DNA of 42,076 nt, taken from the NCBI GenBank assembly GCA_037140315.1, contig JBAXES010000001.1, positions 1 to 42,076 of the forward strand, in the 5' to 3' direction. Positions 4,766-32,546 of this stretch are shown in pieces (the first letter of the stretch is position 1; each line of letters opens with the position of its first letter). Source of the DNA: Chloroflexales bacterium. GTDB lineage: Bacteria; Chloroflexota; Chloroflexia; Chloroflexales; Chloroflexaceae. The position numbers were made by a program, and so were the translations under genes. A model generated the notes under the pieces. It did not search any database and was not told where the DNA came from. It saw nothing but the letters and a program-made list of their open reading frames with translations.

Positions 4766-5077
4766 AGTATGGCTTTGCCGCTCGCTGCAGTGAGAGACGG
4801 CGCTATTGATCATAAAAGCAGTTCATATAGCAATCCTACCGGGGTTGTGAAGCCGATTCTCTGGCTGCCGCTTCCCAATGTGGCACCCCTGGAGCATGGC
4901 GCAACAGGCTTCACGACCGGCGTAGGACTGCTATAGGTAAGAATCAGGTATAGATACACCAAGCTGGAACGGTGGAGAATGCCACGCTCACCGTTTGTAG
5001 GACGCTGGAGCAGGCGACAAAGTTGCTTGCTCTTAACTTTGTACCGAATCCTACGAGATACTGCTTGCAGGATGGTA

Positions 5078-6511: not shown

Positions 6512-6769
6512 GTGCTCATGGCCGAGCTCCAAGCGATGCGCGACGTCCTGACCGTCGATGAGATCGCCGACTACCTGCGGGTTAGTCGGGCAACCATCTG
6601 CCGATGGTGCGGCGCTGGCAAGCTCCCCGCCTTCAAGATCGGCAAGAGCTGGCGCGTGCAGCGGAGCGACCTGGAGGGATATATCAGGCGTCAGCGTGAC
6701 GCTATGCCAGATCAGCCAGGTCTCGCTGTGGTAATAAAAGATCTTGCTCATTCTTCTAACCAGAGCTGA
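6512..6769 (+). CDS. Excisionase-like helix-turn-helix DNA-binding protein (HTH_17 type)
   Basis: LTVDEIADYLRVSRATICRWCGAGKLPAFKIGKSWRVQRSDLEGYI matches the family pattern. Start at 6512 or 6518. Confidence 0.9.
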   Translation: MLMAELQAMRDVLTVDEIADYLRVSRATICRWCGAGKLPAFKIGKSWRVQRSDLEGYIRRQRDAMPDQPGLAVVIKDLAHSSNQS

Positions 6770-7571: not shown

Positions 7572-9863
7572 ATGAACTATCGCAGACTCGCGCCTATTGC
7601 TACGCTCTTACTCACACTGCTGCTGTTAGCCTACGCGCCTGCCTCGCTTGTTAGGGCTAGGGCACCTGGTTATGCGCCTGGGGCAACTATTATCTTCGTG
7701 GTTGATCAGTCGGGGAGTATGCGTGATGGGCCGATTCTGAATCAGGCCAGCGGCGCACGCGGGCCAGCGAGTGACCCTGATGGTTTGGCGTTGCTCGCGC
7801 TAAACTCTGGCATCCAGCCGATCTTTCAGCGGATCGTTTTGAGCGAGCTTGAGCGAATCAGCGTCGATCTTGTTGGTCAGGAGCATGAGATTGGCGTGGT
7901 GCTCTTCGGCGGCGGTCTTGAGCCAAACGAAGGCAGTGTCCGGATCGCTGTGCCGATTACGAAAGTTGAGATCCAACGAGACAAGGATGGTAATGTCACA
8001 TCGAATATCGATGGGTTACTGCCAAAAAATCCGTCTAACCTTGGTGATACTGCTTTCTCGGGGGCTTTTGATGCCGTCTGTACAATGATCAACTGCGACC
8101 AGGGGCCTCCGCCAGGTCGAAAGCAAATCGTTGTACTACTGACCGATGGTGCCCCTGCACGCGATACGATTTCCTATAATATCAATGAGCCGACCAACTA
8201 TTTCAATGCGTTAGGCTCAAGATTCAGCGGGCTGTTTAAAAATAGCGAGTTGTGGGTGCTTGGCCTTGATCGCAGTAACCGCTTCTGGTCAATCAATCAA
8301 CCCTTCTGGGAGAAGATTGCCCCCGGACATACACGCCTGCTCACCAACCCAAGCGATATTGCCCCGATCTTTAGCCAGATCGCGCTCGAGGCAATTGGTG
8401 AGCCGCTTGCTCCTCCACGCGTCTGCGACGGGACATCCTTCTCCGTTGAGCCTTACAAGGCTTCGCTTTCCCTCATCCTCGAGTACCCTGATGTTAATAG
8501 CAAGGCTGAGTTTTTTCTACCCTCAGGCGAAAAGCTGACCCGTAAAACGGCGGCAGTGGCTGGCTATACCCGCAGCGCGCTCTCCGAGTCGTTCGTCATC
8601 ACTGATCCCGTCCCCGGTGAGTGGCGCTGCCAGATTGTTGGCACGGGTGTGACCCCACAGTTCCGCGATATCCAGGGCCTCTTTCGGGTTACCAATCTTG
8701 AGATCGGGCGCTTTGGCGATATCCCCTCGGCTTGCCGTGATTTTAACCTGACGATTACGTACCGCGACCGCAACAATAAGCCCATTGCTGAGATACCTGA
8801 GTATCCGCTAAACCAGCTCGTAACCGTCGTGATCGATGGAACGCCAATCAAGCGGAACCTCATCGCCGTCGACTCTCAGCGAACAGTTTGGCGTATTGAT
8901 GGTGATCTGACCCCGAGCGAGGGCGGCGGAACCTATCCGCTCGATATATCAGTGAGCCTGGCCAAAGGCTCGCAGGCGACGATCTTTGCCGATACGAGCC
9001 ATTCGATCACGATTGATCCGCGCTTGCCCTGCTTAAGCGTCGTTGCCCCAACCAATGGCGGGGTAAGTAGTATGCATGATCGCCTCTCTCCGGTTGGTGT
9101 GACCCTTGATGTGCTGCTCAGCCAAGGCGGGAATCCGGCCCAGCTTGAGGGAATCTTTCGTGAAGATGTAAATAAGATTATCACCGGTACGTTGCTCGGC
9201 CCGAGTCACCTCTCCCGCGATGTGGTGTTTAGCGCGGTGCCCGAAAAGCCCGGCCTCTTCCGTGCGCTTGTGAATGATCTCCCCACCACCCTCTCAGCCG
9301 GTGGGGTGTACACCTTTACGGCCCAGCTCACTGCAACCACTCAGGCCGGTGAGCGCTATGCCCTTGCAACACCCACAATCAGCTTCACCCGTGAGCCCGG
9401 CACCTTCTGGCGAGCCGTCCAGATCGCCATTCGTGTCGCTGCGCTCGCTGCCGTCCTGATCGTGCTTACCTTGATTGGCCTGTTTATTCTCTTGATAACC
9501 CCGCCCTACCCTCACGGCATACTTGTGGTTCAGCGTAGGGTGACGGGCGACGCGGCCGCCTTCCGCCAGTGGGATGATCTTCACACCTTCAGCTTCACGA
9601 GTGCGAAGCTATTCGGCATCTTGCCAATGCGCTGGGTCACGCTGTTGGTCAAAAGCAAAACCACCCAAACCACGATCAATATCAGGCGGGCGCGGGCCAA
9701 GTACGTCAAGGTGGCCCGCGAGGAAGGCATTAGCGCCACCCTCTTCCCGGCTAAAAAGGGTAGCAGCAAGCGTGAATTCACCTTCACGCGACACGGTCAG
9801 TCTCGCGATCTTGGCGGAGATCTTCGCCTGCTCTATCAAGATTACGGTAAGCAGCGGCCCTAG
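7572..9863 (+). CDS. Signal peptide + VWA domain + Ig-like domains + TM + basic cytoplasmic tail
   Basis: Signal peptide; MIDAS FVVDQSGS, GDT, VLLTDG; beta-rich middle; TM VAALAAVLIVLTLIGLFILLI. Confidence 0.9.
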   Translation: MNYRRLAPIATLLLTLLLLAYAPASLVRARAPGYAPGATIIFVVDQSGSMRDGPILNQASGARGPASDPDGLALLALNSGIQPIFQRIVLSELERISVDLVGQEHEIGVVLFGGGLEPNEGSVRIAVPITKVEIQRDKDGNVTSNIDGLLPKNPSNLGDTAFSGAFDAVCTMINCDQGPPPGRKQIVVLLTDGAPARDTISYNINEPTNYFNALGSRFSGLFKNSELWVLGLDRSNRFWSINQPFWEKIAPGHTRLLTNPSDIAPIFSQIALEAIGEPLAPPRVCDGTSFSVEPYKASLSLILEYPDVNSKAEFFLPSGEKLTRKTAAVAGYTRSALSESFVITDPVPGEWRCQIVGTGVTPQFRDIQGLFRVTNLEIGRFGDIPSACRDFNLTITYRDRNNKPIAEIPEYPLNQLVTVVIDGTPIKRNLIAVDSQRTVWRIDGDLTPSEGGGTYPLDISVSLAKGSQATIFADTSHSITIDPRLPCLSVVAPTNGGVSSMHDRLSPVGVTLDVLLSQGGNPAQLEGIFREDVNKIITGTLLGPSHLSRDVVFSAVPEKPGLFRALVNDLPTTLSAGGVYTFTAQLTATTQAGERYALATPTISFTREPGTFWRAVQIAIRVAALAAVLIVLTLIGLFILLITPPYPHGILVVQRRVTGDAAAFRQWDDLHTFSFTSAKLFGILPMRWVTLLVKSKTTQTTINIRRARAKYVKVAREEGISATLFPAKKGSSKREFTFTRHGQSRDLGGDLRLLYQDYGKQRP

Positions 9864-9920: not shown

Positions 9921-12900
9921 ATGCCAAACATCGCGCATCCAGCAGTGATCATCGGCCTCGGCGGCACTGGCAAGTGGATCTTGACCTATATCAAAAAGAG
10001 TCTGCTCGATACCTATGGGGGGGTGATCCCGCCGACAGTTCAGCTGCTCTCCTTCGATACTACGAGCGAGCGACCGGCCAAAGATGGCGAGGCACAAGAG
10101 GAGGATGTCAAGGTCGGCGATGTCCAGCTCAACAGTAACGCTGAGTTTGTCTATCTTGGCGGCAATATTAAGCAGATCTGCCTCGATATTAGTAACAAGG
10201 GCGATTATCCCTACATTGGCTCCTGGCTGCAGGCCCGCGCTTATCTGCAATCGAATGATGATCGCGCCTTTGATATCTCGGGCGGTGCCGGCCAGAAGCG
10301 ACCCTTCGGGCGCATGTCGCTCTTTCTCGATCTACAGCAGAATACGCAGGCCAAGGTCTCCAACAAGATCGTGACTGCGATCAGCAATGTCATTGCGGCC
10401 AATAAGCAGCTGGAAACCGTCGAGATCTATGTTATCGCCTCGCTGGCCGGCGGTACTGGGGCCGGGACATTTCTCGATGTTGCCCATCTCGCTCGCTGGT
10501 ACGCGAACAAGCATCTTGTGACTGGGAAGTTCGCGATCCGCGGCTTCCTGGCCTTACAGAATACGTTTAACTCGGTCATCCAGGTCGGCAAAATCCAGCC
10601 GCAGGCATTTGCCGCCATGCGTGAGCTGGATCGCTTTATGTATGTCTTCAACCAGAGCTACCCGATTGTCTATAATCCCAATAACCCAGACTTAGATACG
10701 CGCTATGGCGGCCAAGGAAGTGACGGGCGGGATAGCGGCAAGCTCTTTGATAGCTGTTTTCTGCTCGATGCGAGCCGCGAAAAAGTATCACTCGATGGTG
10801 TGAAGCCCAAGCATGGCGTCTACCCCACCATCGCCGATGCGATCACGATGCTGCTAGATGGCTCGGTTGGCGATGCCTTTGTGCAACACTATGTGAATGT
10901 CGGGAATGATATTGCCCTCACGCAATCGCGCTTGGGCAAGCCGATCTATAGCAGCCTCGGTGCGTTTGCCCTCGTGCTGCCAGTCGAGGATATCATCTCG
11001 AGCCTGAGCTACCGCTTTGCCCGCGAGCTGCTTGCCGAGCATCTGCTCAACCTTGAGGAGGTGCCGAGCCAGGGTGGGCAGACCCGCTATGTGCTGCGCT
11101 ATGAGGGGAACGCCAGGGAAGAGGCGGCATCCTTTCTGCGTATGACCCAGAGCGCCAAGGGTGTCGCCAGCACGGCCTTCATCCAGCGCATCCCCGATAC
11201 GATTGATCGGCGCAACCCGCAGAACGACGCCTATATTAAAGAGGTAGCCTTTCTGAGCGCAGCTGAGCTGCTGGCCTGGATCATCCCTCCCGAGAGCGAT
11301 AGAACCGTTGAGGAGCTGGCCAAGCAGGTGCGCAGTGATCTTCAGATGGTACTCGCTACTCGAGTTAGCCCATCGAATATTGAACATGATGATCCAATCG
11401 AGGGCTGCGATCGCATCCTTAGCGCGGTGCGTACCTTTAAAGAGGAATACCTTGGGCTCGAGATCGGCGGACGCAAGGTTGGCGGGCGCTACCAGACGGC
11501 GCTGGAGAGCTGTCTGAAGGTTCATCGTGATCGCTATCGCCGCCTCCTCTGTGAGTATCTGCTCAACTTGCTGAATGGTTCAGCCCCCGAGAATCCCGAC
11601 TTCCAACACGAGAAGCGCGGTAAGCTTGGGCGTGCGCAAGCAGTGCTGAGCCACCTGGTTGTCTCCTACCACAACGAAGTTGCAGCCTTCATCGGGCGGG
11701 TTAAAGCTACGCGCGCCGAGAGCGGTGATCTGGCGCACGCTCAAGATGAGGCTTCCCTCGCACGTACTGAGATGGAGCTAAAGGCAGCAGGTGGATCGGG
11801 ATTCATGGGTATTGGGAAAGTTGTGAAAGACATGCATCCCGCGATCAAGGCCCAGAAAATCTACCTGGAGGCTGAGCAGGCACTGATCGATACCGAGATC
11901 AATGACCTCTTCTTCGATTTCATCCAGCAGACCATGCGCGCCCTTCAGACTGAGACCGAGTCATTCAAGGCGGCGATCGATGGCTGGGTCGATGCCCTCG
12001 CCCAGGGAATTACCGGCGAGGTAACCGACCCCGGCCTCTACCGTTACCTTGGCGACCTCAATACTCGCCATCAGAACGAGCGCAATGATAAGCAGACCAA
12101 CTTCAAGCTGGTGCGCGAGTATGTCACCGACCAGGCATACGAGCAGGCGGTCTACGAAGCGCAGACGGCAAGCAAGTTTGCCGAGGCCCTCGCTAGCATG
12201 GTCTGGACGGTTGAGGAGCAGGGCGGCAAGATCCAGGTGGGCCTGAGTAACTATGTCACAGCCAGCAGCGACCAGCGCAGCGGGCGCACGACGACCCAAC
12301 GCAATACAGACCAAGTGCTCAGCGTTGCACGCCGCTACTTCGAGCCACTACGTGACACACTGACGATCTCTGATCGGCTAGTGAAACGCTATGATCCGGC
12401 TCAGCTCGCGCGCCACCTGCGCGATAGCTGCGCCGCAATGATCCGCTTCGTCAGTAGCGAAAAAGCTGGCGGCGATGCGATTGAGACCTACTTCGTCTGC
12501 GTTAACCAGGGCAAGCACCAGACCTACTTCAATGAGTTTGGTGCAGCGCTGGGTAGCTTTGGCAGTGCGGCCTATCAGAATCAAGTGCTTCAGAGCGTCA
12601 ACCCATACACGTGTACCGTGCTGGCCACGACTGATCGCTTCACCAGCGAAGGGCTCTTTGCCTATGTCAGTGCGGAGCGTGAGTATAACCAGTACAGCGG
12701 CGACGCACGCCAGCTGCATATCTTCCCCGCCGAGGTCAACGCGGTGCATCTTGAACAGAAGCTCCGCACAATCAGTGAGTCCCGGCGGCGCTTCTCACTG
12801 CGGCTGACCGCGATGCTCGAAAACATCGAGCTTGTGCGCCGCTTCGTTCGCGCCTATCTCTATCGCGCTATTCGGCCTGATGCAGTGGACAACCGCATCA

Positions 12901-13646
12901 GCCGCTGGAATTTGCATATCAATACGTTGCGACGACGGACGAGCAATGTGATCGCGCTCTCACGCGCAGATAACTCCCTCGATCTGCTCGATGCGATGGA
13001 GACCTTCGTCTTCAAACGGGCCGACTATGATAACCCCACGATCACGATCGATATGGATCAGCTTGACCGCGATCTCGATGAGCGCGAGCAGCAGGCCAGC
13101 GGTGGTGACTCGAGCCGCCTGATCAACATGTTTGAGTACTTGATCGAGGAGGATATCGAGCCACTGCGACAAGACAAGAATCAGAACATGCGTGACCTCG
13201 GCTCGGTCATGCGCCTGCTGATCGACGAGCAGATCGAGAGCCTGAAGGAGCGGCTGAAGCATCGGGGACAGGCCTTTGATCCCAGCGCCAAGCCGCTAAT
13301 CAATGTGCGGGAGATCGCAGGCGATGCGCGTACCGCTCCGTCTGAGGAGCCGAAATCGTCCCCGGAAAAGCAGCCGGTCGAGGTGTCGGGGCCAACTGTT
13401 CCGGTTGAGACGGTGACGCCACCGACGCCACCGACGCTGCCCACCGACACACGGCTAGAGCGCCTGCGCGAGTTCTACGAGATGGTGCAGGAAGGTGATC
13501 TGACCGCCGACGGCTTCGTCAAGCGTGTTGGCAAGATGCTTGAAGGCGGCGACCTTGGCGGTCTGCAGGAGTTCTACGAGATGGTGCAAGAGGGCGACAT
13601 GACTGCCGATGGCTTTGTGCGGCGTGCCGCCCGCATATTGAAGTGA
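9921..13646 (+). CDS. Tubulin/FtsZ-like GTPase (Tubulin_2 / FtsZl1 type) with long helical C-terminal region
   Basis: VIIGLGGTG, LLSFDT, GAGQKRPFGR, SLAGGTGAGTFLD (10440-10466), AFAAMRELD; strong RBS GAGGAG. Confidence 0.92.
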   Translation: MPNIAHPAVIIGLGGTGKWILTYIKKSLLDTYGGVIPPTVQLLSFDTTSERPAKDGEAQEEDVKVGDVQLNSNAEFVYLGGNIKQICLDISNKGDYPYIGSWLQARAYLQSNDDRAFDISGGAGQKRPFGRMSLFLDLQQNTQAKVSNKIVTAISNVIAANKQLETVEIYVIASLAGGTGAGTFLDVAHLARWYANKHLVTGKFAIRGFLALQNTFNSVIQVGKIQPQAFAAMRELDRFMYVFNQSYPIVYNPNNPDLDTRYGGQGSDGRDSGKLFDSCFLLDASREKVSLDGVKPKHGVYPTIADAITMLLDGSVGDAFVQHYVNVGNDIALTQSRLGKPIYSSLGAFALVLPVEDIISSLSYRFARELLAEHLLNLEEVPSQGGQTRYVLRYEGNAREEAASFLRMTQSAKGVASTAFIQRIPDTIDRRNPQNDAYIKEVAFLSAAELLAWIIPPESDRTVEELAKQVRSDLQMVLATRVSPSNIEHDDPIEGCDRILSAVRTFKEEYLGLEIGGRKVGGRYQTALESCLKVHRDRYRRLLCEYLLNLLNGSAPENPDFQHEKRGKLGRAQAVLSHLVVSYHNEVAAFIGRVKATRAESGDLAHAQDEASLARTEMELKAAGGSGFMGIGKVVKDMHPAIKAQKIYLEAEQALIDTEINDLFFDFIQQTMRALQTETESFKAAIDGWVDALAQGITGEVTDPGLYRYLGDLNTRHQNERNDKQTNFKLVREYVTDQAYEQAVYEAQTASKFAEALASMVWTVEEQGGKIQVGLSNYVTASSDQRSGRTTTQRNTDQVLSVARRYFEPLRDTLTISDRLVKRYDPAQLARHLRDSCAAMIRFVSSEKAGGDAIETYFVCVNQGKHQTYFNEFGAALGSFGSAAYQNQVLQSVNPYTCTVLATTDRFTSEGLFAYVSAEREYNQYSGDARQLHIFPAEVNAVHLEQKLRTISESRRRFSLRLTAMLENIELVRRFVRAYLYRAIRPDAVDNRISRWNLHINTLRRRTSNVIALSRADNSLDLLDAMETFVFKRADYDNPTITIDMDQLDRDLDEREQQASGGDSSRLINMFEYLIEEDIEPLRQDKNQNMRDLGSVMRLLIDEQIESLKERLKHRGQAFDPSAKPLINVREIAGDARTAPSEEPKSSPEKQPVEVSGPTVPVETVTPPTPPTLPTDTRLERLREFYEMVQEGDLTADGFVKRVGKMLEGGDLGGLQEFYEMVQEGDMTADGFVRRAARILK
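13464..13640 (+). repeat. Two tandem SHOCT-like repeats at the C-terminus of the tubulin-like protein
   Basis: LREFYEMVQEGDLTADGFVKRVGKML and LQEFYEMVQEGDMTADGFVRRAARIL, 99 bp apart. Confidence 0.8.
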
Positions 13647-13663
13647 CCCCTTCGGTAGGTTTT

Positions 13664-13689
13664 GGGGCGCGACAGTATCGTTGCGCCCC
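13664..13689. repeat. Intergenic GC-rich hairpin (REP-like)
   Basis: GGGGCGCGAC-agtatc-GTTGCGCCCC, 10-bp stem with one G:U pair, just after the tubulin stop codon; no + strand U-tract. Confidence 0.6.
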
Positions 13690-13733
13690 GCCGACGGGCT
13701 GATGTAGCCTTCTTCTGCTGAGGCGAAAGATCT

Positions 13734-16700
13734 GTGATGCGCCAGCGTATCCATCAACTCAATACGCTTCTCGCTGTAGTCGCTGTCGCTAGTGTATTCG
13801 CATCTGCACCTGCTGCGCTGCATGCTCAAATTCCTGTCTGTCAGAGCCTCGATGTCATGCTTATCTTCGATACAACGAGTAGCATGGCCGACGAGATTGG
13901 TATTGCACAGTCATCAGTGCTTGATATGATCGGCACCATTCGCGCCGAACATAACGATGCGCGCTTTGGTGTTGGCTCATACCGCGACTACCCAAATCTC
14001 ACGGGTGGGGTTGGCGATTATCCGTGGCGGCTTGATCTGGCCCTAAGCGCTGATGCCAATCTCGTCAAACAGCGGATTGAAAGCCTCTCAGCTGAAGGCG
14101 GCGGTAGCTCAGATCGAGAGAGCATAGCGCGAGCACTTGATGAAGTGCGTGACCCCAGCACGATTGGCTGGCGCGATGGCTCCGCCCATGTGGTTGTGCT
14201 GATCGGCGATGTTGGTGCCCTGCCGCGCGACCCCGGTCGGGATGGGCAACTCGGCACTGCCGATGATCTGATTCTCAGTGACGTGCTGAATCGTCTTGTC
14301 ACTGACAAAATCATTGTCTACCCGATCGATTTTGAGGGCGGGGGAAACGACTTTGAGTTGATGGCAAGCACGACAGGCGGTCGCGTAACTAAACCCCGAT
14401 CAGCCAGTGATCTACCTCGCTTGATCCAATCCGCCGCGCTAGAGGGCTGCGCCGTTGCTGCGGCAACGGCGCAGCCCGTCTCTCCCCCTGTCTCTCCCCC
14501 TGTCTCTCCTCCTGTCCGATCAGAACCACCAGATTGGTGGCCTTGGCTATTACTTATCCCGCTGTTCCTCTTGCCCGTGCTCCTGCTTCTGTTTCTACGC
14601 AAGCGCAACCGTGATGCGATCAAGCGTGGTATGCCGCTCGGTGCACCGCTCGGCGCAGCCCCGGTCACGCCTGTCGTGCTTCCCCCACCCCCCAGCCACA
14701 ATGCTCTGCCGGTGGTAACACCCCAGCGCCCAGCCTATCGGTCGGCGCTGTTGATTGGGGTTGGTCGGGCAGGGCGCTGGGTGTTGACCCATGCTAAAGA
14801 GAGTCTGGGCGAGCAGTCAGGTGTTCGCCTGCTGGCAATTGATGACCAGCCGGCCGATCCGGCGCAAGACCCGCCGATCAGCGTGCTCGTCCCCGACCTC
14901 GAGCGTGGCAGTGTGGCGCTCAGCCTGAGCGAGAGTGCGCCAGACGAGATCCTCCGCTTTAGCGATGAGAGTCGCCGCTTCACGCAACTTTTCCGTGACG
15001 ACCCACAACAATATCCGCTGATCTGCGCTTGGCTCAATGCCCTCGATGGTTTCGACCTTTCGGCCCAAGCGCGCCTGCGCTTTCTCGCGGCCCTCGCGAG
15101 CGGCCCGCTTACGCACATACTCAACCAGCAGATAGAGGGTCTGGCCAAGTCTGATGGTAAGCAGATCTATCTTGTCGTCGATCTAAGTGAGCCGCTTGCC
15201 CTCGGCGCAACGATCGATCTGGCCTATGGACTGCGCTCTATCATCCGTAAGATGGGCAAACCCATCGCCCTCCACGCTGTAGTGGCCCTGCCCAGTGTCG
15301 ATACTCCAGATGGTCCAGCTGCCCACGCGCTTTGGCGCGCAATCGAGCGCACTCAACAGTTCTACGGGCGCGTGCCTGTAGATCCGCCCAGCTTTGATCT
15401 TAACCTGATCGGCGCGCCGCCTGCTGAGACTCTTGGTGATAGCCGCCTCTTTGATACATGTGCAATTGTTAGCTCCAACCGCGAGCGATCATCATTGATC
15501 GCGCTGCCCCCAGAGCATGGACTCTATCCGCTAATCGCAGATGCGATCATCAGCGAGCTGCTCGCCCCTGGCGCAAGCGCCATCGAGGAGCACCGGGCCA
15601 ATATCAGCGCGCGGATCAGCCTGGCGCAGCAACGATTCGGACGGCCCTTCTACCGCAGCATAGGTAGCTTTTGTTACGACCTAGCCCCGCACGCGCTCTA
15701 TCAACAGGCGGTCGATCAGTCACTGGTTGCTCTTGTCGGCGACCTCAATGCTGATGGTGCCACTGTTCGCCCCGATACGCTACTTAATCGGCTCGAACAA
15801 GCTAGTGGATCTCGCCTGTTTAGCGGACAATTGCCCGCTGCGCCGACTGCCATTGATCTTGTCGCTTTTGTCTATGCAGCTGTTGGTACAGCCAGCATCG
15901 CTCCCTATCTTGAGGATGCTTTTCCGCGAACAGTGCGTTATCAGATCCTAAATGGCAATGATGCGACAACCGTCGCTGGCACGCTCGATGCCCAGTGGTA
16001 TGGCCCCCAAGGTGAAGTAGTGGTCAAGATTGGCGAGCATGCTGAGCAGGCCGTGGCCAGCTTCCGTGAAACGCTACGTGGTGAGGTTGTCGCGATGCTC
16101 AATACACTAGGCGCGGCGAAGCTCACCGGCACGATCAGCTTTGTCCAGGGCCTTGTTGAAGAGATGGGCCGTCGTGCTAGCTTGCTTCAGCGGGCAGCTG
16201 ATCAGCTGCGTCTCCCATCGAGCGATGAGGAGTACGCCGTACACCAGGCGATTGGCGGCCAGCCTGGTTTCTTGCGCCGATTGTTTGGTCACATAACAGC
16301 TGCAGAACAAGATCAGGCCCTTGCTGAGCGACAAACCCAACTCACCCTCAAGGCCCAACAGAGCGCCGCCACAGCCGCCGCACGCGCCTTCGCCGCAATG
16401 CAACTATTTGCCGGCGACGTGGCGGCAAACCTCATCGCCTTCCAGCAGAGTCTGCTCGATGAGCAGTCTGTGGCTGCTAAACGACTTTCATCCGCGCGCG
16501 ACCGTCGTGTCCAACGGTTGGCCTATGGGCGCGTGCGCCATGAGTGGGGGATGCCACTGACCGATGTGAGCGAGTTACAGCACTACGCCGACCCGCAGCA
16601 GATCCTGCCGACCAACGAGACTAGTCGGCGGACAGTGCTTGAACTGCGTGCCTACCTCGATGGGCGACACATGGCGGAGCTCGCCCCTGCGGATGAGCCG

Positions 16701-17690
16701 CTAGCCGCCCATATATACTGGAATTGGCCCGCCGAACATCCGCCGAGCGCACTCCAGCCGGTCTTTCTTGATGGTACTCACCAGCGCCCATTTGCCACCC
16801 CTGCCCATTGGCGCACGATCTCTAATCAAGCTGCGCAGTGGGTGTGGAACCTGCGACTTGCGCCTCTGTTGAGCAAAAGCGTCGTGAACCCACAAGCCTT
16901 TGCTCGTACGCTAGATAGCGAACAGCTCGCCCCGGCTATTCGCTATATTCCGACGCCAACTGATCAGCGTGAGAGTCATAACTTCTTGCTCGTTGCGTCC
17001 GCGTCAATCGCTGCGGAGGTGCGCTGGTTTGATGCCGTGATCGAGGCCCAGCAACAAGCAGGGATCGCCCGCAGCTACCATCGCTGCATCGAGAACAGCA
17101 ACCCTTACCACGTGCGTGCGCTGACCATCGCTGAGCTGATTGCTCCGCTCGTCCTTGGGGCAATTGGCGATCTAGACCGCGTCGCCGCAGCATATCGGGC
17201 TAGCCAGGGGCGCTGGACACGCATTGCGCCTACGCTCAACGAGGCAATTGCTGCCCGCCTTGAGCGCGACCGACGCGCGATCCTCGATCTGCTCTGCCCA
17301 GAAGCGGTCAGCGCACTCAACGAGGAGCATCGTGTGCGCATCTTTGCCCAGGCCGTGCTCTGCGGCGTGATCGGCCCTGATCGGGATGCCGACCGCCTGA
17401 AGGTGACGGTACAACGTCCGCGCTATCACCTACTCGCTGACGTCCATCCTACCCTTGTCGAGCGCACCTGGCTCGAAGCCATGCGCAGATTCACGCTTGC
17501 CGATGCGGCGCTAGTGAAGTCCGTGCAGGCGGTTGTAGATCGTGAGTTCAAGGCACTGACTCCCGACCACTATGATCATTGGCTAGATAAAGGACTCCCT
17601 TCGCAGCTACGCGCAGTTGCAGATCCAGCGACTCGCGATCTTGTCGGACTGTGGCAGGCGGCACTCGAACCGCTCTTTGATACGCTCTAA
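13734..17690 (+). CDS. Signal peptide + VWA + TM + degenerate tubulin-like paralog
   Basis: VWA: IFDTTSSM, YRD, GGG..E, VLIGD. TM WWPWLLLIPLFLLPVLLLLFL. Then LLIGVGRAGRWVL, LFDTC, HGLYPLIADAI colinear with 9921..13646; GTP loop replaced by DLSEPLALG. Confidence 0.88.
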   Translation: MMRQRIHQLNTLLAVVAVASVFASAPAALHAQIPVCQSLDVMLIFDTTSSMADEIGIAQSSVLDMIGTIRAEHNDARFGVGSYRDYPNLTGGVGDYPWRLDLALSADANLVKQRIESLSAEGGGSSDRESIARALDEVRDPSTIGWRDGSAHVVVLIGDVGALPRDPGRDGQLGTADDLILSDVLNRLVTDKIIVYPIDFEGGGNDFELMASTTGGRVTKPRSASDLPRLIQSAALEGCAVAAATAQPVSPPVSPPVSPPVRSEPPDWWPWLLLIPLFLLPVLLLLFLRKRNRDAIKRGMPLGAPLGAAPVTPVVLPPPPSHNALPVVTPQRPAYRSALLIGVGRAGRWVLTHAKESLGEQSGVRLLAIDDQPADPAQDPPISVLVPDLERGSVALSLSESAPDEILRFSDESRRFTQLFRDDPQQYPLICAWLNALDGFDLSAQARLRFLAALASGPLTHILNQQIEGLAKSDGKQIYLVVDLSEPLALGATIDLAYGLRSIIRKMGKPIALHAVVALPSVDTPDGPAAHALWRAIERTQQFYGRVPVDPPSFDLNLIGAPPAETLGDSRLFDTCAIVSSNRERSSLIALPPEHGLYPLIADAIISELLAPGASAIEEHRANISARISLAQQRFGRPFYRSIGSFCYDLAPHALYQQAVDQSLVALVGDLNADGATVRPDTLLNRLEQASGSRLFSGQLPAAPTAIDLVAFVYAAVGTASIAPYLEDAFPRTVRYQILNGNDATTVAGTLDAQWYGPQGEVVVKIGEHAEQAVASFRETLRGEVVAMLNTLGAAKLTGTISFVQGLVEEMGRRASLLQRAADQLRLPSSDEEYAVHQAIGGQPGFLRRLFGHITAAEQDQALAERQTQLTLKAQQSAATAAARAFAAMQLFAGDVAANLIAFQQSLLDEQSVAAKRLSSARDRRVQRLAYGRVRHEWGMPLTDVSELQHYADPQQILPTNETSRRTVLELRAYLDGRHMAELAPADEPLAAHIYWNWPAEHPPSALQPVFLDGTHQRPFATPAHWRTISNQAAQWVWNLRLAPLLSKSVVNPQAFARTLDSEQLAPAIRYIPTPTDQRESHNFLLVASASIAAEVRWFDAVIEAQQQAGIARSYHRCIENSNPYHVRALTIAELIAPLVLGAIGDLDRVAAAYRASQGRWTRIAPTLNEAIAARLERDRRAILDLLCPEAVSALNEEHRVRIFAQAVLCGVIGPDRDADRLKVTVQRPRYHLLADVHPTLVERTWLEAMRRFTLADAALVKSVQAVVDREFKALTPDHYDHWLDKGLPSQLRAVADPATRDLVGLWQAALEPLFDTL
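14475..14516 (+). repeat. 12-bp tandem repeat encoding a (PVSP)n linker
   Basis: cc(c/t)gtctctccc x3.5 between the VWA domain and the TM helix. Confidence 0.85.
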
Positions 17691-17702
17691 CGAGGTTTGA
17701 CT

Positions 17703-20372
17703 ATGCAAGTTGGACAGACAATCACCGGCATGAGCGGTACGTACTACCTGCGTAAGCCACTTGGCACACCTGGGCTCTACGGGCAAGCATTCCTTTGCAC
17801 TAGCGTTCAGGAGAAAGATTTTGTGGTCAAGGCGATACGGGCTGATGCGCCGAGCGATGCACGTAAGCGCCTCGACGATGAGGCACAGACGCTTAGCGCG
17901 GTTGCGGCAGCTGAAGATATCGCCGGGGTACACTATGCGGTGCGCCTGATTGATCGCAGTGCTGGCAGCGAACCAGAGGCATTCATCGTGATGGAGCGCG
18001 CCACCGGTGTCAATGTACTCGATGACATCCTTGCTGACGTGGGTGACTGGAATAGTGGCGGCCTTGATGAGTTGCTCACATTGCGGATCATGCGGGCCTT
18101 CGCAGACGCGCTGTGTCATGTCCATCAGGCACAGCGACTCTATCTCGATATGAAGATCGACAACCTCTTCTGGGATGATGATAGCGACGAGCTTCGAATT
18201 ATCGACTGGAATGTTGTTGGCGATCTGCGCGAAAGCAGCAGTGGCGTCGCTGGCGATTGGGCTCGCTTCGGAGCGCGACTCTATGAGATGCGTACCGGCC
18301 AACGGATCGGCATCGACCGTGATGGAACCATGATCGGTAATGGACCGAATGGCCCGCGCTGGGATGCGCTCCCCGCCGGGATCCGTACGATCATCAGTCG
18401 GGCGCTTGCCCTTGGCTATTCTAGCGATGAGCAGATCCTCAACGATCTCAATCGGGAACTTGAACACACCCGTCTCGGCGCAAGCTGGGATCGCTTGCTG
18501 TCGATCTCCGAGATCGCCGATGGCAATAACGCGCCACCGATCGATGTGCTGGCACCACTTTCGCGTGCGGCTACGATTGTCAATACGTTGCCACCCTCTG
18601 GTGCGCGTAGCGACGCGCTTGCGCAGATCAGCCGCCTTGAGCGTCACGCCAATGAGCGCCAGGGTCGTGTGGCCGAAGAGACGCTCAAGAGCGCATTCAG
18701 ATTGCTCAGCACTGGTAACGTGAGCGTAGCACTCAGCCAGTTCCAACGCGCCTACCAGGTTTCAGGCCAGAACGACCCACGCCCGCGTCGCGGCATATGG
18801 ATCGCTCAGATCGCTGCTGCGAACCCACAAGCCTATGCTGGTGTGGCGAAGGATCTTGAGGAGGCAGTCGAGCTGCTTAATCTGCCGCAGCCCTCGCTGG
18901 GGGACCTCAACAGTAGCATGCGCCGCCTGAATATCGTCGCGGAGGATGTTGGCACAGCACCTACCTTCAATTACCTGCAGAGCGAGGTGCGACTGAAGCA
19001 TACGCACGTTGAAAAAGGGGCAGCTGCTGCGCTTGCGCGAAAGGCTGAGTTTGTTGAGCTTTGCCGGGAGTATCCTGATCTCGAAGCCTACTTCACTCAA
19101 ATCGAGGAAGAGCGGCGCACCGCCGCACGCCGCGTCACCGCTGATGCGCAGCATGCCAAGTTTACAGCGGAGCTAGCCGCTAGCCGTGAGCAGGTGCGCG
19201 CTATTACGCTACAGCTATCTTATGGCGAGCGAATAAAGCGCTATGAGGCCCTTTGCCAATTGCTACACACAGTCGATGATCTCGAAGCGATTAAAGAATG
19301 CGGCGATCTCCAGGCAATGATCGACGATCTGCGCCCGATCAACGAACTCAATGAGATCATAGCAGAGGCACAGAATGTTCGTACCAATGATCTGCAGAAT
19401 TTGGAGGCATTCTATCGTCGGGTCAGTGCGACCAACCTCGCCCCTATTGCTAATCAGCTCGTGGAATATAGTCGGATGAAGGCGTGGGCGCAACTTAGCA
19501 CGGCCATCAAGCATCAGCAGAGTGAGGTGCTATCGGCGCTGCAGCAACAAAGCAGCGCCTTGAGCGGATTCAAGACGAGTGTTGAGCAAATTTCTACCTT
19601 GAGCCACCGCCTCAGGGCGATCGAGGAGAGTCTTGCGAACGCAGGTGATGCATTGCCAAGCCGTAGCCAGCCCGTCGATCCGTCTGCCCAAACCCACCTG
19701 CTGACCTTTCTCTACGAGGTCAATACGATCCGTGATCAGATTGAAGCTGGTTTGCTCTCGAATGCAACCGAGCGAATGAGACGGGTTCGTAGTCAGTATG
19801 TAGGGTCGCAGATGCCTAGCGACTATGAGCAGCGGATTGAGCGGCGGAAAAAAGCAGCTGATCTGGCATGCCAGAGGTTTGATGCGGCAATGAATCCGGG
19901 CACGGAGATCGACTTCAACGCGGCGATTGAAGCGTATCGTGAGATGCTGCGACTCTGGGTCGATAATGGACAGTTCTATCAGAAGGGCGAGATGATCATT
20001 GAGCGGGTGGTCGAATCATTGGGAGTAGCGGTATCTATTCCGTATACTAGCGTAAATGTGAAGCTCTTTCAGGAGCGTGCCGAGAATATTAATCTATTCT
20101 TCAAGGAGGTCAATGATGCGAGTAAGCGCACTATTGACTACCAGGGAGATCAGGTGGTGATCAATAGCCTCCGTGACGATATGTCGAAGGCATTGCATGT
20201 GATGACTGCACTCAGCGATGCGTTCTTGAAAGGACATCTTCATGAGAAGCAATTGGCAGGATTTCGCAATGCACATGCGTACCTTAAGCAATTTAAGAAC
20301 GCGCCATCTCAGCTCCTCAAAATGCTTGATGTGCTGGCTAAAAGCTTTGGCCCCATGGGTAGGATATCTTGA
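17703..20372 (+). CDS. Atypical soluble Ser/Thr kinase-fold protein with long helical/coiled-coil C-terminus
   Basis: LGTPGLYGQAF, VVK, E of helix C, FIVMERATG, YLDMKIDN, IIDWN; ATG 17703 follows GAGG. Confidence 0.85.
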   Translation: MQVGQTITGMSGTYYLRKPLGTPGLYGQAFLCTSVQEKDFVVKAIRADAPSDARKRLDDEAQTLSAVAAAEDIAGVHYAVRLIDRSAGSEPEAFIVMERATGVNVLDDILADVGDWNSGGLDELLTLRIMRAFADALCHVHQAQRLYLDMKIDNLFWDDDSDELRIIDWNVVGDLRESSSGVAGDWARFGARLYEMRTGQRIGIDRDGTMIGNGPNGPRWDALPAGIRTIISRALALGYSSDEQILNDLNRELEHTRLGASWDRLLSISEIADGNNAPPIDVLAPLSRAATIVNTLPPSGARSDALAQISRLERHANERQGRVAEETLKSAFRLLSTGNVSVALSQFQRAYQVSGQNDPRPRRGIWIAQIAAANPQAYAGVAKDLEEAVELLNLPQPSLGDLNSSMRRLNIVAEDVGTAPTFNYLQSEVRLKHTHVEKGAAAALARKAEFVELCREYPDLEAYFTQIEEERRTAARRVTADAQHAKFTAELAASREQVRAITLQLSYGERIKRYEALCQLLHTVDDLEAIKECGDLQAMIDDLRPINELNEIIAEAQNVRTNDLQNLEAFYRRVSATNLAPIANQLVEYSRMKAWAQLSTAIKHQQSEVLSALQQQSSALSGFKTSVEQISTLSHRLRAIEESLANAGDALPSRSQPVDPSAQTHLLTFLYEVNTIRDQIEAGLLSNATERMRRVRSQYVGSQMPSDYEQRIERRKKAADLACQRFDAAMNPGTEIDFNAAIEAYREMLRLWVDNGQFYQKGEMIIERVVESLGVAVSIPYTSVNVKLFQERAENINLFFKEVNDASKRTIDYQGDQVVINSLRDDMSKALHVMTALSDAFLKGHLHEKQLAGFRNAHAYLKQFKNAPSQLLKMLDVLAKSFGPMGRIS

Positions 20373-20406: not shown

Positions 20407-21759
20407 TTGCCGATTAGCATTGAGGCCGATCTGATGAGTGGATTAACTGCCTCGAGCGAACAAATTCGCACGCTTACACGTCGATATGACGATCTTACGG
20501 CGGATCTAGATTGGTCGCTTGCTGCAGAGTTGCCCAGTGGGCAAGCCTTGCTCAACGACGTCAAAAGTGCAGAGGAGGCCCTGGTTGCTGACTGGCGACA
20601 GGTTCTTGTACAGATACGCACACTACGCAAAGGTGAGATTGACCCGATCGATGCGCTCGTGAAGGCTGCACACGATCTTGCTAGGTTGCGCCGCCAAATG
20701 GATGGGGAGCGAGAACCGCTGACTACCGATGTTGCATCAGTCATTGTGCAATCTGCACGATTGATCAACGGGGGGCACTATGAGGCGGCGCTGAATCTGC
20801 TCTCGATGCTTGAGGTGAGTGATCTGCGAAAGAAGCTGATCAAGGCACGTGCCAAGCTGATTCCGGAGATCTCGCTCACACAGTTTGGTTTGCTTGGCAC
20901 ACTCTTTCTCATTGTCATATCAAGCCTCGTGGCGGGCCTGTTCACATTACGCACGGTACAGCAGATTGTGCCACCGCCCATGTCCTCAACGGCGGTGGCT
21001 GTCAATCAAGCCACGGTGACACCCACGGTGACACCCACGGTGACACCCACGGTGACACCCACGGTGACACCCACAGTGACACCCACGGCGGCACCTGATA
21101 CTGGGCTTTCCCTTGATACGCTCGACAGCACGAATATCTCGCTCGAAGGGCAGGAAATCGCAGAGTTGACTAAGCTTTCGGGCGAGGTCGTGGTCACTGC
21201 CGTGTTGACAAATGCCACAGGAGAGAGGCTAGTCGTCGCATCTGCGCCAATCACGCTGACGAAGGCCCCGACCCAATTGAGGCTTGTCGCATCTGATACG
21301 GTGCCCCTGATCGACACTGATAAACTTGCAGCGCTCGTCGGTAACACGAACCAGCTCACCATAACTGTCGAACTCAGCGATACGCTCACCCTGACGCGCA
21401 GCGTCTCTGTCAGGACTGCGACCATAATAGATCCTCAGCCCTCTGGTCAGAGTAGTGCTGGGGTGAGTAGCGACTACTTCCTTATGCAGGGGCAGGGCTA
21501 TGTGCGAGATACCCAAGGACATGCGCTGCTCGTGATACTCCCAAAGGCTGATACTAAACCTAAGGACATACCAGACCCCACTCTTGCATTGGCGGCTGGC
21601 GACACGGTGCTTGTACTTGGCAAGGCGAAGGGCTCTGACGGTAAGCCCGTCTATTACATCCGCGTTAGGGGCATTGCCGATATCGCACGGAAGAACCAAC
21701 CTAGTCTACCAGAAACAAAGCTGACTGGTTGGATCCCGGCAACCTATATTGGGGAATGA
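20407..21759 (+). CDS. Single-pass membrane protein: cytoplasmic helical N-domain, (TPTV)n stalk, C-terminal SH3-like domain
   Basis: TM FGLLGTLFLIVISSLVAGLF; LAAGDTVLVLG...YYIRV...TGWIPATYI is SH3b-like. Start uncertain (20407 TTG or 20434 ATG). Confidence 0.75.
   Translation: MPISIEADLMSGLTASSEQIRTLTRRYDDLTADLDWSLAAELPSGQALLNDVKSAEEALVADWRQVLVQIRTLRKGEIDPIDALVKAAHDLARLRRQMDGEREPLTTDVASVIVQSARLINGGHYEAALNLLSMLEVSDLRKKLIKARAKLIPEISLTQFGLLGTLFLIVISSLVAGLFTLRTVQQIVPPPMSSTAVAVNQATVTPTVTPTVTPTVTPTVTPTVTPTAAPDTGLSLDTLDSTNISLEGQEIAELTKLSGEVVVTAVLTNATGERLVVASAPITLTKAPTQLRLVASDTVPLIDTDKLAALVGNTNQLTITVELSDTLTLTRSVSVRTATIIDPQPSGQSSAGVSSDYFLMQGQGYVRDTQGHALLVILPKADTKPKDIPDPTLALAAGDTVLVLGKAKGSDGKPVYYIRVRGIADIARKNQPSLPETKLTGWIPATYIGE
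21013..21084 (+). repeat. 12-bp tandem repeat x6 encoding (TVTP)6
   Basis: acggtgacaccc x5 followed by acagtgacaccc. Confidence 0.95.
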
Positions 21760-24700
21760 TCATGGAAGAGATACTTGCATCGCTAACCCGGGCAGATCGT
21801 AAGCTCTCTAGCGGTGACTTTGATGGTGCCGAGAACGAATACCGCAGCGCCCTTGATCAATCTGAGAAGGAGCATCTGAACGAACTGGCCAATCGCGCCT
21901 CAGAGGGGATCAAGCAGGCGCGCCGTGCACGCTCGCGTACTAGCGAGTTGTCTGTAGCTGAGGCTGAAGTTCTCCAGGTACTCCACAATACCGGCGGAGA
22001 TCAGGCTCGCTTACGTACCAGCAAACTGTCCGTAGCTGAGGTAGCGACGGCGGTGCATACACCGCAGCAGGAGGTGTTACTTAACGAGTACCGCAGCGCA
22101 GATAGTGATGAGCGTCGTATCCTCTCGTTACGTTGTCTAATTGACGATAGCTTCGCCCAGTTGATCGATAGCCAAACCACTCATGATCGCTATGTTGCGC
22201 TGCTGAGTATATTGCGCACCCGCATGCTTCAGGATGCGCGCGAATTAGTCGATAAGGGCCGACGCAAACTTGAAGAGGCCCTAAATAGCTCGGTACTCAC
22301 TGATGTGCAGCGCGCGGAGGTGATAGCAAACTATTTTCAAGCTGGTGAGATCATCGAGGGGAAGAAGCTCGACTTCCCAACGGACAATGGCGATGCGTCA
22401 GTTCACGCCGCTATCGCTAGTATTCGAAGTGATCTACGTAACGACGGACAATTAGACAGCATCAATGAAGAGATCCGCCAGTTACGCAATGATCTGCCGA
22501 AAGCTGGGCATGTTGTGAGCAGTCGCCTAGCTACCTCGACACCGAGTGAGCCCTCCAGTGCGCCTCCCTCCAAGGCTATAGTTGCGCCTGCGTCGACGCC
22601 ACCTTCTGGCCGCGGGCGCAAAGTGACCACGACGAAAGCAGCATCTGATGCAACGCTTTCGAGCCAGCAACGTGAGAGCCAACACGCTGAAGCACTTGTT
22701 GCACGTGCCGAGGTTCGTCTGCGACGTCCAACAACAGCCAGCTATAAAGAGGCGATCGATCTGATCAAGGAGGCGCTCAGCATGAGCGTTTTGGATGCTG
22801 AACAGCGCGTTCGCATCCAAATTCGCCTAGCTGAAGTTGAGCAAAACTATACGACATTCCGCGACCGATTCGGTCAACTCGTCACTGCACGCCAGATCGA
22901 TCAAGCTGAGGAAGAGTTGATCGTGACGCTCATGCTGATGAATGCGGGGGCGCAGGATGGCCCTGATGGCGAGAATTTGGCCGACAAATATAACCAGGTC
23001 TCGAAAAAGCTGCGCGACGATCTGCTGCGCGTCGCCAGCGAGCGTGTCGCCTTGGCGGATCGCCATCTGATCAATGGGCGTGACTTTCTTGATCTTGGCC
23101 CGATGCAGGCCGCGCAGAAGTGCTTTGATGAGGCGATGACTCTGCTTAACGGCGAGCAGATCGGCGATCTGAGTGGGCAGATTACATCTGAGCGGCGCAC
23201 GGCGATCCTCGGCGTGCGCAAGACGGTCTCGGAGCTGTTGCGCCGCGACCATCGGCTGAGTGACTACGAGGCGCGAAAGACAGAGGTCGAGCGCGCAACT
23301 GCGTTAATCGAGCGCGTAAAGCCAATTTACACCAAAGCTGAGGCGGAATTTAATAATCGTCGCTACATCCAAGCCTGGATACTTGTCGGCCAGATGAAAT
23401 CAACCCTTGGGAATGACTTCGCGAGCCAGACCGTCGAGACACTCAACACTCGTGCGACCACTGCGCGTGAGGATGAGCTATCTGCTGAGCTTCAGGTGAT
23501 CGCCGAGCAGGCGCAGAGCGCACTTGCCAATATGCAGATCAGCAAAGTTGAGGAGGCGGTATCGAAGGCGCTGTTACTCGACCCGCAATTCAAGACGACG
23601 CTAATCAACGCCAAACGCGATGAGATTCGCTCGTTGCTTGAGCAGGTGCGCAGCATTGAGCGCCAGATCGCTACGCTGCTCGGCCAGGCTCGCGATGCGC
23701 GTAGTAAGCGGGACTGGCCGTCTGCTGCCGCTGACGTTCGTCGTGCGCTCACCATCCGCCCTGACTCCACTGACGCCCGAGAATTACTCGACAACGTACT
23801 CTACGATAGCGCACTTGATACATTTACCGGCATCGAGCGTGAGCTTGAGAAGAACAACATTGATAGCGCGCAAATCACCGTACTGAAGGATCTTTTGGGC
23901 AATGACCGCCCGCTGATCGAGGAATTGAGCGACCCGCAGATTAAGCGCCGAGTCCACCAGATGGCTGAAGATCTACGTGAGCGCATCAACAAGCTTGTTG
24001 ATGAGACAGGTAAGAAGGAGGCTCAACGCGACAAGCTGGAGAACGCTTTACGTGAACTTGAGCGCAATATCAAGATTGCTGCATTCGAGACGGCTAATGG
24101 TTGGCTCCAGACAGCGCGTGAGCTAACCTCTAGCCAGAATCCACGGCTCGTGCGCCTTGAGACTGAGCTGCGCACTACATGGGGCGATGATCTGCGCCGT
24201 CGCACAAGGCAGGCCCTCGATGCATCACCATCTAAACCAACTGAGGCGATTGATCTTCTGAACTCGATCGACGAGCGCGGCTTGGCGAATGAGGAGTCAC
24301 TGGCCCTGCGCCGCCGCGCCGAGCGACTCCTCGCCCGACAAGAGGGCCTCGCCGCCTGTGATCGCGGCGATTTTTCCACCGCGCTCGATTGGCTGAGCAA
24401 GGCCGATCTGGATAATCCTGAGACGCTAGTGCTGCTCAATCAGACGCAGCGCAAAGAGGTCAACCGTCTCGCCGGGGTTGAGGACTGGGAGAAGATGCTC
24501 GCCATGATCCTGAGGATGGACTCGGGTGAGCAAAGCCTCGCGGGGCTGGTACGCCGCGGGCGGGGCGAGTTGGCGCTGCGAGCCTTTGTTGAGCATCTGC
24601 GCGAGAAGCGATTTGCTGATGGTGAGATCAAGCTCAACGAGGCGCTGGCCCAAAGGCTGCCCGACATTAACGAGCGTGTCATTGGGCTGCGCGACGAGCT

Positions 24701-25856: not shown

Positions 25857-25891
25857 GCAGAGCGGACAGCGGATACTATGGAGCATGGAGA

Positions 25892-26527
25892 ATGAGCGAA
25901 GGCGCAACATTCACGTACGACCAGCTTGATGCATGGGCTAAAATCGCCGACGAGGGCAAGCGTGTCCTGGCCTCCGCACAAGCTGTTGAGCAGCAAGCGC
26001 GCGACAACGAGGAGCGCAAGCTGCTGCGCCCAGCGGCTGAGCAGTATGATCAGGCGCTGCAAGAGTACAATAGCGCGATCAAACATCTTGAACAGCTCAT
26101 CGGGATCACCTTTGAACACGTCGCAATCGCGCAGATGGTGCGCGAGGCGAGTAGTAGCCTCGCCACCGCTCAGGCTCGCCGAGATCAGCTGGTTCGTGAG
26201 GAGCCAGCCATGCGCTGCCGCGACAAGGTCCTGGATGCGCAAAAGCTACAGCAAGAAGCCGATCAGTACCTACGCAGCGGTGAGCCAAATGAGGCGCGTG
26301 AGCGAGCGATCAAAGCGCGTGACCTCGACCTGACGCTCAGCGAGTGGGCAGACTCAATCCTGCGTGGTTCCGAATCCTCGATCACCAGCAGCAATCTCCC
26401 AGTTGGACCGATTATCATCGGTGTGATTATTGTGGTACTCATCGCGCTGGCCGTGATCTTTGGGCCAGGTTTGTGGTCGTGGGTAAGTGAGTTTCTCTTC
26501 CCCGCAGTGATAATCATCCGAGGATAG
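25892..26527 (+). CDS. Helical TPR-like protein with C-terminal membrane anchor
   Basis: QYDQALQEYNSAIKHL, GEPNEARERAIKARDLD; TM IIIGVIIVVLIALAVIFG; RBS GGAG. Confidence 0.8.
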   Translation: MSEGATFTYDQLDAWAKIADEGKRVLASAQAVEQQARDNEERKLLRPAAEQYDQALQEYNSAIKHLEQLIGITFEHVAIAQMVREASSSLATAQARRDQLVREEPAMRCRDKVLDAQKLQQEADQYLRSGEPNEARERAIKARDLDLTLSEWADSILRGSESSITSSNLPVGPIIIGVIIVVLIALAVIFGPGLWSWVSEFLFPAVIIIRG

Positions 26528-26529
26528 CT

Positions 26530-28060: not shown

Positions 28061-28066
28061 TTAGCC

Positions 28067-32525: not shown

Positions 32526-32546
32526 TTTTGCAAGAACAAGGAGTTT

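Follow-up and report, generated by a model that had tools for sequence, protein, structure and literature searches.

The window analysed here, 42,076 bp in length, is the entire contig JBAXES010000001.1 of a Chloroflexales genome assembly (GCA_037140315.1) that is 81.5% complete. Two tubulin-like genes lie in tandem on its forward strand, separated by 87 bases. Gene A encodes an intact member of the FtsZl1 family (Tubulin_2, PF13809), and gene B encodes a paralog in which the GTP loops are lost and the tubulin-like part follows a predicted signal peptide, a vWA domain and a transmembrane (TM) helix. The pair is real, conserved and selectively maintained; it is a variant within the FtsZl1 system and does not form a class of its own. 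The features of the two genes are as follows.

9921..13646, + strand: gene A, FtsZl1/Tubulin_2 protein with intact GTP loops, 1241 aa, without TM helix (PF13809 and model)
9951..9971, + strand: T1 loop of A, IGLGGTG
10281..10301, + strand: T3 loop of A, GGAGQKR (deleted in B)
10440..10466, + strand: T4 signature loop of A, SLAGGTGAG
10977..12365, + strand: predicted helical stalk of A, about residues 353-815, inserted after S7 (DSSP on the model; limits approximate)
11799..11825, + strand: tip of the A stalk hairpin, GFMGIGKVV, hydrophobic, candidate membrane paddle
12396..12803, + strand: rest of the tubulin C-terminal subdomain of A, H9-S10 and subsequent helices (predicted from the model)
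13461..13643, + strand: two short C-terminal repeats of A behind a Pro-rich linker, SHOCT-like (sequence inspection)
13734..17690, + strand: gene B, signal peptide, vWA, TM and GTP-dead FtsZl1 paralog, 1318 aa, start GTG 13734 or ATG 13737
13734..13826, + strand: predicted signal peptide of B, ending ALHA (hydrophobicity scan)
13848..14414, + strand: vWA domain of B, MIDAS-type DTTSS at 13869-13883, predicted outside (homolog profile)
14535..14612, + strand: TM helix of B and RKRNR (positive-inside pattern)
14745..15680, + strand: tubulin N-terminal subdomain of B up to S7, GTP loops lost
15180..15206, + strand: dead T4 loop of B, DLSEPLALG
15681..16868, + strand: predicted helical stalk of B (model)
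16266..16289, + strand: tip of the B stalk, GFLRRLFG
16890..17303, + strand: rest of the tubulin C-terminal subdomain of B, predicted (model alignment to FtsZ)

Gene A encodes an intact FtsZl1 protein

The N-terminal part of A matched PF13809 with an E-value of 1.8e-43 (149.6 bits, cut-off 27). The protein also has the central coiled-coil and helical C-terminal region of FtsZl1, with genes for a vWA protein and a kinase as neighbours. Its T4 loop is the AGGTGAG variant of the GGGTG(S/T)G-type GTP loop, and the same variant is found in A homologs. PF09851 is present in several A homologs, while the C-terminal repeats of A itself gave no Pfam match. No solved structure was matched by sequence with the A alignment, and a search of the ESM Atlas with residues 800-985 gave no usable match. 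Close relatives of A carry the labels Chloroflexaceae or Chloroflexales, and canonical FtsZ-family genes are present elsewhere in the genome. Contigs from RNA runs match patches of both A and B, which cannot be read as evidence for or against transcription.

Gene B is a membrane-anchored paralog of A

By BLASTP, only the GTPase regions of the two proteins could be aligned (residues 8-350 of A with 338-647 of B, 27% identity, E 4e-26). Alignment of profiles built from 109 A-type and 69 B-type sequences, using hhalign, extended over the whole cytoplasmic part (923 columns, P 100, E 6e-104), and was significant for the middle part alone (E 3e-16) and for the tail alone (E 2e-44). A sequence-only reading of the same DNA had proposed that B is colinear with A along its entire cytoplasmic part and has lost the GAGQ motif; the profile alignment reproduces its pairs SVNPY/NSNPY and MRDL/TRDL and shows the T3 loop containing that motif to be deleted in B. 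With PF13809, B scored 13.4 bits, under the cut-off, while B homologs exceed it. B thus belongs to FtsZl1/Tubulin_2 by homology, as a derived, dead paralog and not as a regular member.

The gain of a signal peptide, a vWA domain and a TM helix by B, also proposed in that reading, was borne out. B has hydrophobic stretches at residues 11-29 and 270-288, the second followed by RKRNR; the signal peptide was assigned by reading the sequence for hydrophobicity rather than with a dedicated predictor. Among 24 receptor-type B copies, 23 have an N-terminal hydrophobic stretch and a separate TM helix, and the other, L008, has a single anchor region. Lys and Arg are richer after the TM helix than before it in 23 of the 24, a positive-inside pattern by which the tubulin part of B is predicted to be cytoplasmic. 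A Pro-rich linker of 31-58 aa lies between the TM helix and the tubulin domain.

The vWA domain of B was matched weakly in Pfam (E 1e-3, below cut-off), and with an E-value of 9e-19 by a profile of 22 homologous ectodomains from which B was excluded. A MIDAS-type motif is present in 21 of the 24 receptor-type B proteins, DTTSS in B being a variant of DxSxS, and close B homologs match an integrin-beta vWA model (E about 1e-8). Solved structures matching the B vWA domain by sequence were not found. An assembly artefact as the source of the fusion was ruled out: a contig from an independent study covers positions 14048-15948, including vWA, TM and tubulin parts, with zero differences, and full-length fused homologs exist.

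Predicted folds and the helical stalk

Structure models were obtained for A (pLDDT 92, pTM 0.83) and for the cytoplasmic part of B (pLDDT 91, pTM 0.87). The sequence-only reading had named a tubulin fold in this part of B as a check on its proposal, and the model is in agreement: the best match was CetZ (Z 25.0, rmsd 5.3, 317 aligned residues), then TubZ, tubulins and FtsZ, and among 48,161 chains the top 17 were all of the tubulin family, the next match having a Z of 8.0. For A the best match was CetZ1 (Z 24.7, rmsd 3.8, 311 aligned residues), with FtsZ and tubulin also matched. Compared by aligned ranges and secondary structure, not by residue pairs, FtsZ 11-316 corresponds to A 5-908, tubulin 1-427 to A 5-961, and FtsZ 10-316 to the range 4-806 of the B model. 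Both proteins are thus predicted to have a complete tubulin fold, with the C-terminal subdomain present yet split.

In the models, strand S7 (residues 343-352 in A) is followed by 400-460 helical residues, containing a long helical hairpin, before H9-S10 resume. We take the insertion site after S7 to be the M-loop position of tubulin nomenclature. The tip of the A hairpin is the most Phe/Trp-rich stalk window across 60 homologs (0.18 against a median of 0.04), with Phe or Trp in the tip of 54 of the 60. In four of 52 B proteins (L016, L019, L099, L103), in a sister group of B, the tip is a hydrophobic hairpin with one or two predicted TM helices. Judged from composition, the stalk tip looks membrane-binding. 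A Foldseek match to the bacterial dynamin-like protein BDLP was rejected as long-helix noise (TM-score 0.11-0.14, rmsd 38).

Selective loss of the GTP site in B

The T4 loop of A has its counterpart in DLSEPLALG of B, and the coordinates that the sequence-only reading gave for the two loops were exact. In a dereplicated set of 63 A domains, 52 B domains (24 from receptor-type and 28 from soluble proteins) and 9 outgroup domains, T4 is intact in one of the 52 B sequences, T3 in none, and T1 (GxGGTG) in two. T4 is present in all 63 A sequences, a circular figure since A-type sequences were chosen by that motif; B-type sequences were chosen by position and homology, not by motif.

Glu486 of B (15189-15191) lies at the place of G177 of A. 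Asp or Glu occupies this column in 46 of the 52 B sequences (background 11%) and persists across B sequences mostly 13-22% identical to that of the window, although the loop cannot be aligned with certainty and a single origin of the residue is possible. We infer that this acidic residue may fill the phosphate site. Other residues are kept in B: R131 in 48/52, D186 in 39/52, R234 in 47/52, E235 in 45/52 and R238 in 50/52. Because the acidic residue is present in 46/52 while R131, R234, E235 and R238 are mostly kept, the decay of B is selective. D313 is present in 63/63 A and 10/52 B, and N326 in 59/63 A and 16/52 B. Pseudogene decay of B was ruled out by its open frames, its selective motif loss and its old clade.

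Distribution and history of the pair

Related loci were collected as the best 80 genome and best 80 metagenome loci from scans with the A alignment, to which four further regions from relatives were added; a locus scan with the single protein had given no matches. In 88 loci the A tail is homologous to that of the window, and 76 of these have at least 1.5 kb downstream; the counts that follow include near-duplicate records. A B-type paralog is the next gene after A in 63 of the 76 loci. The pair is thus conserved, and the claim of the sequence-only reading that B is a membrane-anchored tubulin-fold paralog with lost GTP loops directly behind an intact copy is supported. The 63 B proteins comprise 24 with TM helix and vWA domain, 2 with a TM helix only and 37 that are soluble. 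No B was called in 13 loci, three of which (L009, L014, L098) are one operon, while L149, L168 and L166 are incomplete or weak; L166 has several tubulin-like genes, including two that precede the vWA gene. The kinase directly follows A, with no B, in L009, L023, L095, L108 and L109. An exhaustive search with residues 330-1318 of B returned 82 proteins, so the blank result of a word-index search with the same query was a failure of sensitivity.

The ectodomain of B is replaced in several loci (L100:7031-11719, L143:4625-10359, L026, L159), the types being a PD40 beta-propeller alone, CAP plus vWA, and vWA plus PD40. In L029:4256-12364, labelled Pseudomonadota, two tandem vWA-TM-dead tubulin genes lie behind a single A. 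B downstream of A is in several pieces in L018 and L034, through frameshift assembly errors or true decay, and in L105:190-5607 the A protein is extended by a STAND-type NTPase domain.

In a FastTree phylogeny, A and B come out as sister clades, with SH-like support values of 80 and 87, and the soluble B proteins are nested within receptor-type B. Across 43 pairs, the distances among A proteins co-vary with those among B proteins (rho 0.53, with 0 of 999 permutations as high), and the divergence of B is about 2.3 times that of A. The sister clades, the nested soluble B and the co-varying distances point to a single old duplication, after which the ancestral, fused form lost its ectodomain on several occasions. 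Repeated recent duplication from a local A was unsupported by the tree.

Further afield, 54 distant FtsZl1 loci (e.g. L010, L033, L042, L046, L049, L056, L080) were inspected with a permissive HMM search. In 30 of them a neighbouring gene has a weak tubulin-like N-terminal match (E 4e-34 to 7e-3) without a T4 loop, and 26 of these 30 weak paralogs have TM helices near residues 470-730. FtsZl1 operons may commonly contain a live/dead pair.

Gene neighbourhood

The genes around the pair are as follows.

6512-6769: excisionase-type helix-turn-helix (HTH) gene (TIGR01764), heading the operon region
7572..9863, + strand: signal peptide-vWA-TM protein, 763 aa, first conserved operon gene (Pfam VWA_2, E 1e-4; hydrophobic at 9-27 and 624-642)
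17697..20372, + strand: Ser/Thr kinase with long helical tail, conserved fourth gene (Pkinase, E 5e-11)
20407..27381, + strand: TM protein (450 aa), TPR-like helical protein (1375 aa), TM protein (211 aa) and metallophosphoesterase (283 aa)

Homologs of the upstream vWA-TM protein occur in 53 mapped related loci and the kinase cluster in 37, the typical order being vWA-TM gene, A, B, kinase. The 1375-aa protein and the phosphoesterase each recur in three other loci. The operon region (6500-27900) has a GC content of 0.57 and the next three genes (27983-32525) one of 0.43, compared with 0.67 for the genome. Of 40 relatives of the genome, only 4 gave any match to A: G018 carries A together with a TM-only B, G016 carries A but lacks B, G021 has a complete vWA-TM-B where a contig ends, and G007 encodes a more distant FtsZl1. 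The low-GC operon region looks like an acquired island, and the system is patchy. On its flanks lie sigma-70-type genes (5078-5872 and 37123-38070), a Cys-motif protein (4004-4813; the left flank, 4004-5872, is on the minus strand) and two CHAT caspase-like proteases (34575-36461 and 38089-40998), one of them with TPRs. Five open reading frames of 142-617 aa at 27983-34535 gave no convincing Pfam family.

Proposed mechanism and alternatives

We tentatively propose that B is a nucleotide-free membrane tether and end-cap that co-assembles with A assemblies, a reading that we judge plausible yet a little short of probable. It draws on observed features (the shared body, the lost loops, the fixed gene order, the co-divergence and the membrane topology signals) and on a model-derived one, a complete tubulin fold interrupted by a long stalk at the M-loop position. 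In filaments of the tubulin family, T7/H8 of each subunit closes the GTP face of the one before it. A would bind GTP and polymerise head to tail. In B, the conserved acidic residue would plug the phosphate site, and no subunit would stack productively on its GTP face. Since a plugged GTP face could not extend a chain, B could only cap, if joining is lengthwise, and would do so on the GTP face of A, as the reverse of gamma-tubulin. Such a cap would likely lack a hydrolysis trigger, because the Asp and Asn at the putative T7/H8 (D313, N326) are largely lost.

The vWA domain would fix B caps at cation-dependent adhesion sites outside the cell, while aromatic residues at the stalk tips would make contact with the bilayer, giving a GTP-driven scaffold for membrane shaping or tethering, with the kinase and phosphatase of the operon as its probable regulators. 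Membrane attachment of the dead copy takes various forms: an N-terminal TM helix in the window, a TM hairpin at the stalk tip in 4/52 B proteins, and internal TM helices in 26/30 of the weak distant paralogs. A larger picture, which we regard as doubtful, is that B is a bacterial integrin-like receptor with a tubulin subunit as its cytoplasmic tail: adhesion through vWA would cluster GTP-dead caps, and these would position the filaments built by a tubulin that has a dynamin-like stalk and a membrane paddle, forming a membrane-remodelling cytoskeleton of live/dead pairs widespread in FtsZl1 operons.

Several observations weigh against the tether and cap proposal. Anchoring is not universal, as 37 of the 63 B proteins have neither ectodomain nor N-terminal TM helix, and the stalk tip is shortened or lost in many other B copies. 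B is absent in at least five lineages. A receptor-type B (L016:13424-17956) has near-intact T1 and T4 loops (GLGGTG and ASLAGATGSG) but lacks the T3 motif, a state that is either a relic or the result of reversion, and the B of L156 retains T1. The assignment of D313 and N326 to T7/H8 was made through the order of secondary-structure elements. The phylogeny is from FastTree only, in which long B branches may attract each other, and co-divergence of A and B is expected from shared operon inheritance alone. Complex prediction, with A 1-385 plus GTP and the tubulin N-terminal part of B, scored 0.00 twice and counts neither way; these constructs lack the C-terminal subdomain. Whether FtsZl1 polymerises was left open in the founding description (Makarova and Koonin 2010, PMC2875224).

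The sequence-only reading had suggested that B nucleates, caps or anchors polymers of A in response to an outside ligand, loosely like gamma-tubulin or alpha/beta heteropairs. Both analogies fit poorly, because the GTP face of B is dead and B has been lost in several lineages, including the five loci in which the kinase directly follows A. A ligand-gated nucleator, in which B would seed A polymers when vWA binds outside, has in its favour the MIDAS-type motif of 21/24 receptor-type B proteins with a consistent topology, the apparently ancestral receptor form with soluble forms nested inside it, and the possibility that a multivalent ligand clustering B could concentrate A. We nevertheless consider it improbable: B lost the very face that serves as the template in gamma-tubulin, and the flexible Pro-rich linker argues against direct conformational coupling. 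More than half of B copies are without an ectodomain, and where present it varies; ligand control therefore cannot be the core function. A side-by-side or stalk-to-stalk heteropair resembling bacterial dynamin pairs would divide the work between B, as a structural half bound to the membrane, and A, as the half driven by GTP, with neither head-to-tail filament nor capping. Both proteins do combine a GTPase head with a long helical stalk that ends in a hydrophobic or TM tip, this stalk stands in place of the lateral M-loop, and charged H3-H5 residues are kept in A and B; however, the heads have a tubulin fold and not a P-loop one, the BDLP match involved long helices only, and A has the full longitudinal tubulin architecture, so this arrangement appears distinctly unlikely.

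A role in conflict or defence concerns purpose more than mechanics and can coexist with the tether and cap proposal. B would then be a fast-evolving decoy or sensor for invader proteins aimed at FtsZ/tubulin folds, or a sensor of foreign cells through vWA, releasing A and the kinase as effectors. The lower-GC island behind an excisionase-type HTH gene, the match of A in few relatives, the faster divergence of B, the variable ectodomains (vWA, PD40 propeller, CAP) and the STAND NTPase fused to one A are consistent with this, and tubulin-vWA operons have been classed as conflict systems, with inactive copies discussed as decoys, by Kaur 2020 (PMC7159879). Yet PADLOC returned only generic kinase and HTH matches, and no GAP1 or double-GTPase family is present in the window: GAP1-N2 (PF20013) is absent from its Pfam matches and was not found in the genome (81.5% complete), and no Pfam match to double GTPase or FNIII-repeat genes was seen among 23 window proteins or 35 selected neighbours from related loci. 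A whole 990-aa body with a fixed acidic plug would also be unneeded for a decoy, and we hold a defence role to be unlikely. That B acts independently of A, as a separate scaffold, e.g. for the kinase, in a parallel step of the operon, is very improbable. B can be lost with A intact, and adjacency after duplication needs no contact; against this stand the conservation of the whole body, the fixed position behind A over deep divergence, and the occurrence of B without A only at a contig end (L011), though most loci were fetched by A searches.

Comparison with known systems

The best structural matches of the A and B models are CetZ, TubZ, FtsZ, alpha-, beta- and gamma-tubulin and BtubA/B (Z 18-25), and we know of none among these with an insert of 400-460 aa after S7 or a TM-vWA fusion. 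The alpha/beta and BtubA/B heteropairs are obligate, always co-occurring dimers in which GTP binding is kept in both subunits, unlike A and B. Gamma-tubulin presents its GTP face to the next subunit, and a nucleator of this type keeps that GTP-binding template face, which B has lost. Bacterial dynamin-like pairs share with A and B a GTPase head, a long helical stalk, a membrane-facing tip and adjacent paralogs, but have a P-loop GTPase where A and B have a tubulin fold, and the structural similarity is not significant. Integrin-type MIDAS/vWA receptors offer an analogy in their outside MIDAS vWA domain, single TM helix and cytoskeletal link; B differs from integrins in carrying its cytoskeletal subunit on the same polypeptide.

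A literature search, mostly outside subscription journals, turned up neither a described vWA-TM-dead-tubulin fusion nor the split fold, and no experimental study of FtsZl1, which was described in 2010; the parts available of PMC9871819 and PMC10936438 yielded nothing on the A/B pair. In the Firmicutes GAP1-N2 operons of Kaur et al. 2020 (PMC7159879), there are two tubulin-plus-coiled-coil genes and two vWA genes, one of them extracellular; the vWA and tubulin genes are separate there, and neither tubulin is called inactive in the accessible text, whereas B is fused and dead.

FtsZl1 (Tubulin_2, PF13809) was defined with vWA and kinase neighbours, and membrane remodelling was proposed for it (Makarova and Koonin 2010, PMC2875224). 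The window follows this pattern, with A as the member, a vWA-TM gene upstream and a Ser/Thr kinase downstream. In the accessible part of that description, no inactive or vWA-TM-fused paralog is mentioned, and the downstream genes are B7, B8 or GrpE. T6-H7 and the tubulin C-terminal domain were not alignable there, whereas the present models predict a full fold split by a stalk. The authors and a reviewer left two matters open in the same text, filament formation and the link of a cytoplasmic tubulin to extracellular vWA proteins. As the models show the C-terminal subdomain displaced by the stalk, ordinary head-to-tail polymerisation becomes directly testable, and as a single B chain contains vWA domain, TM helix and tubulin body, the connection through the membrane would be a physical one. 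A conserved GTP-dead partner of a bacterial tubulin would be an independent case of the division of labour between live and dead copies that shaped eukaryotic cytoskeletal systems.

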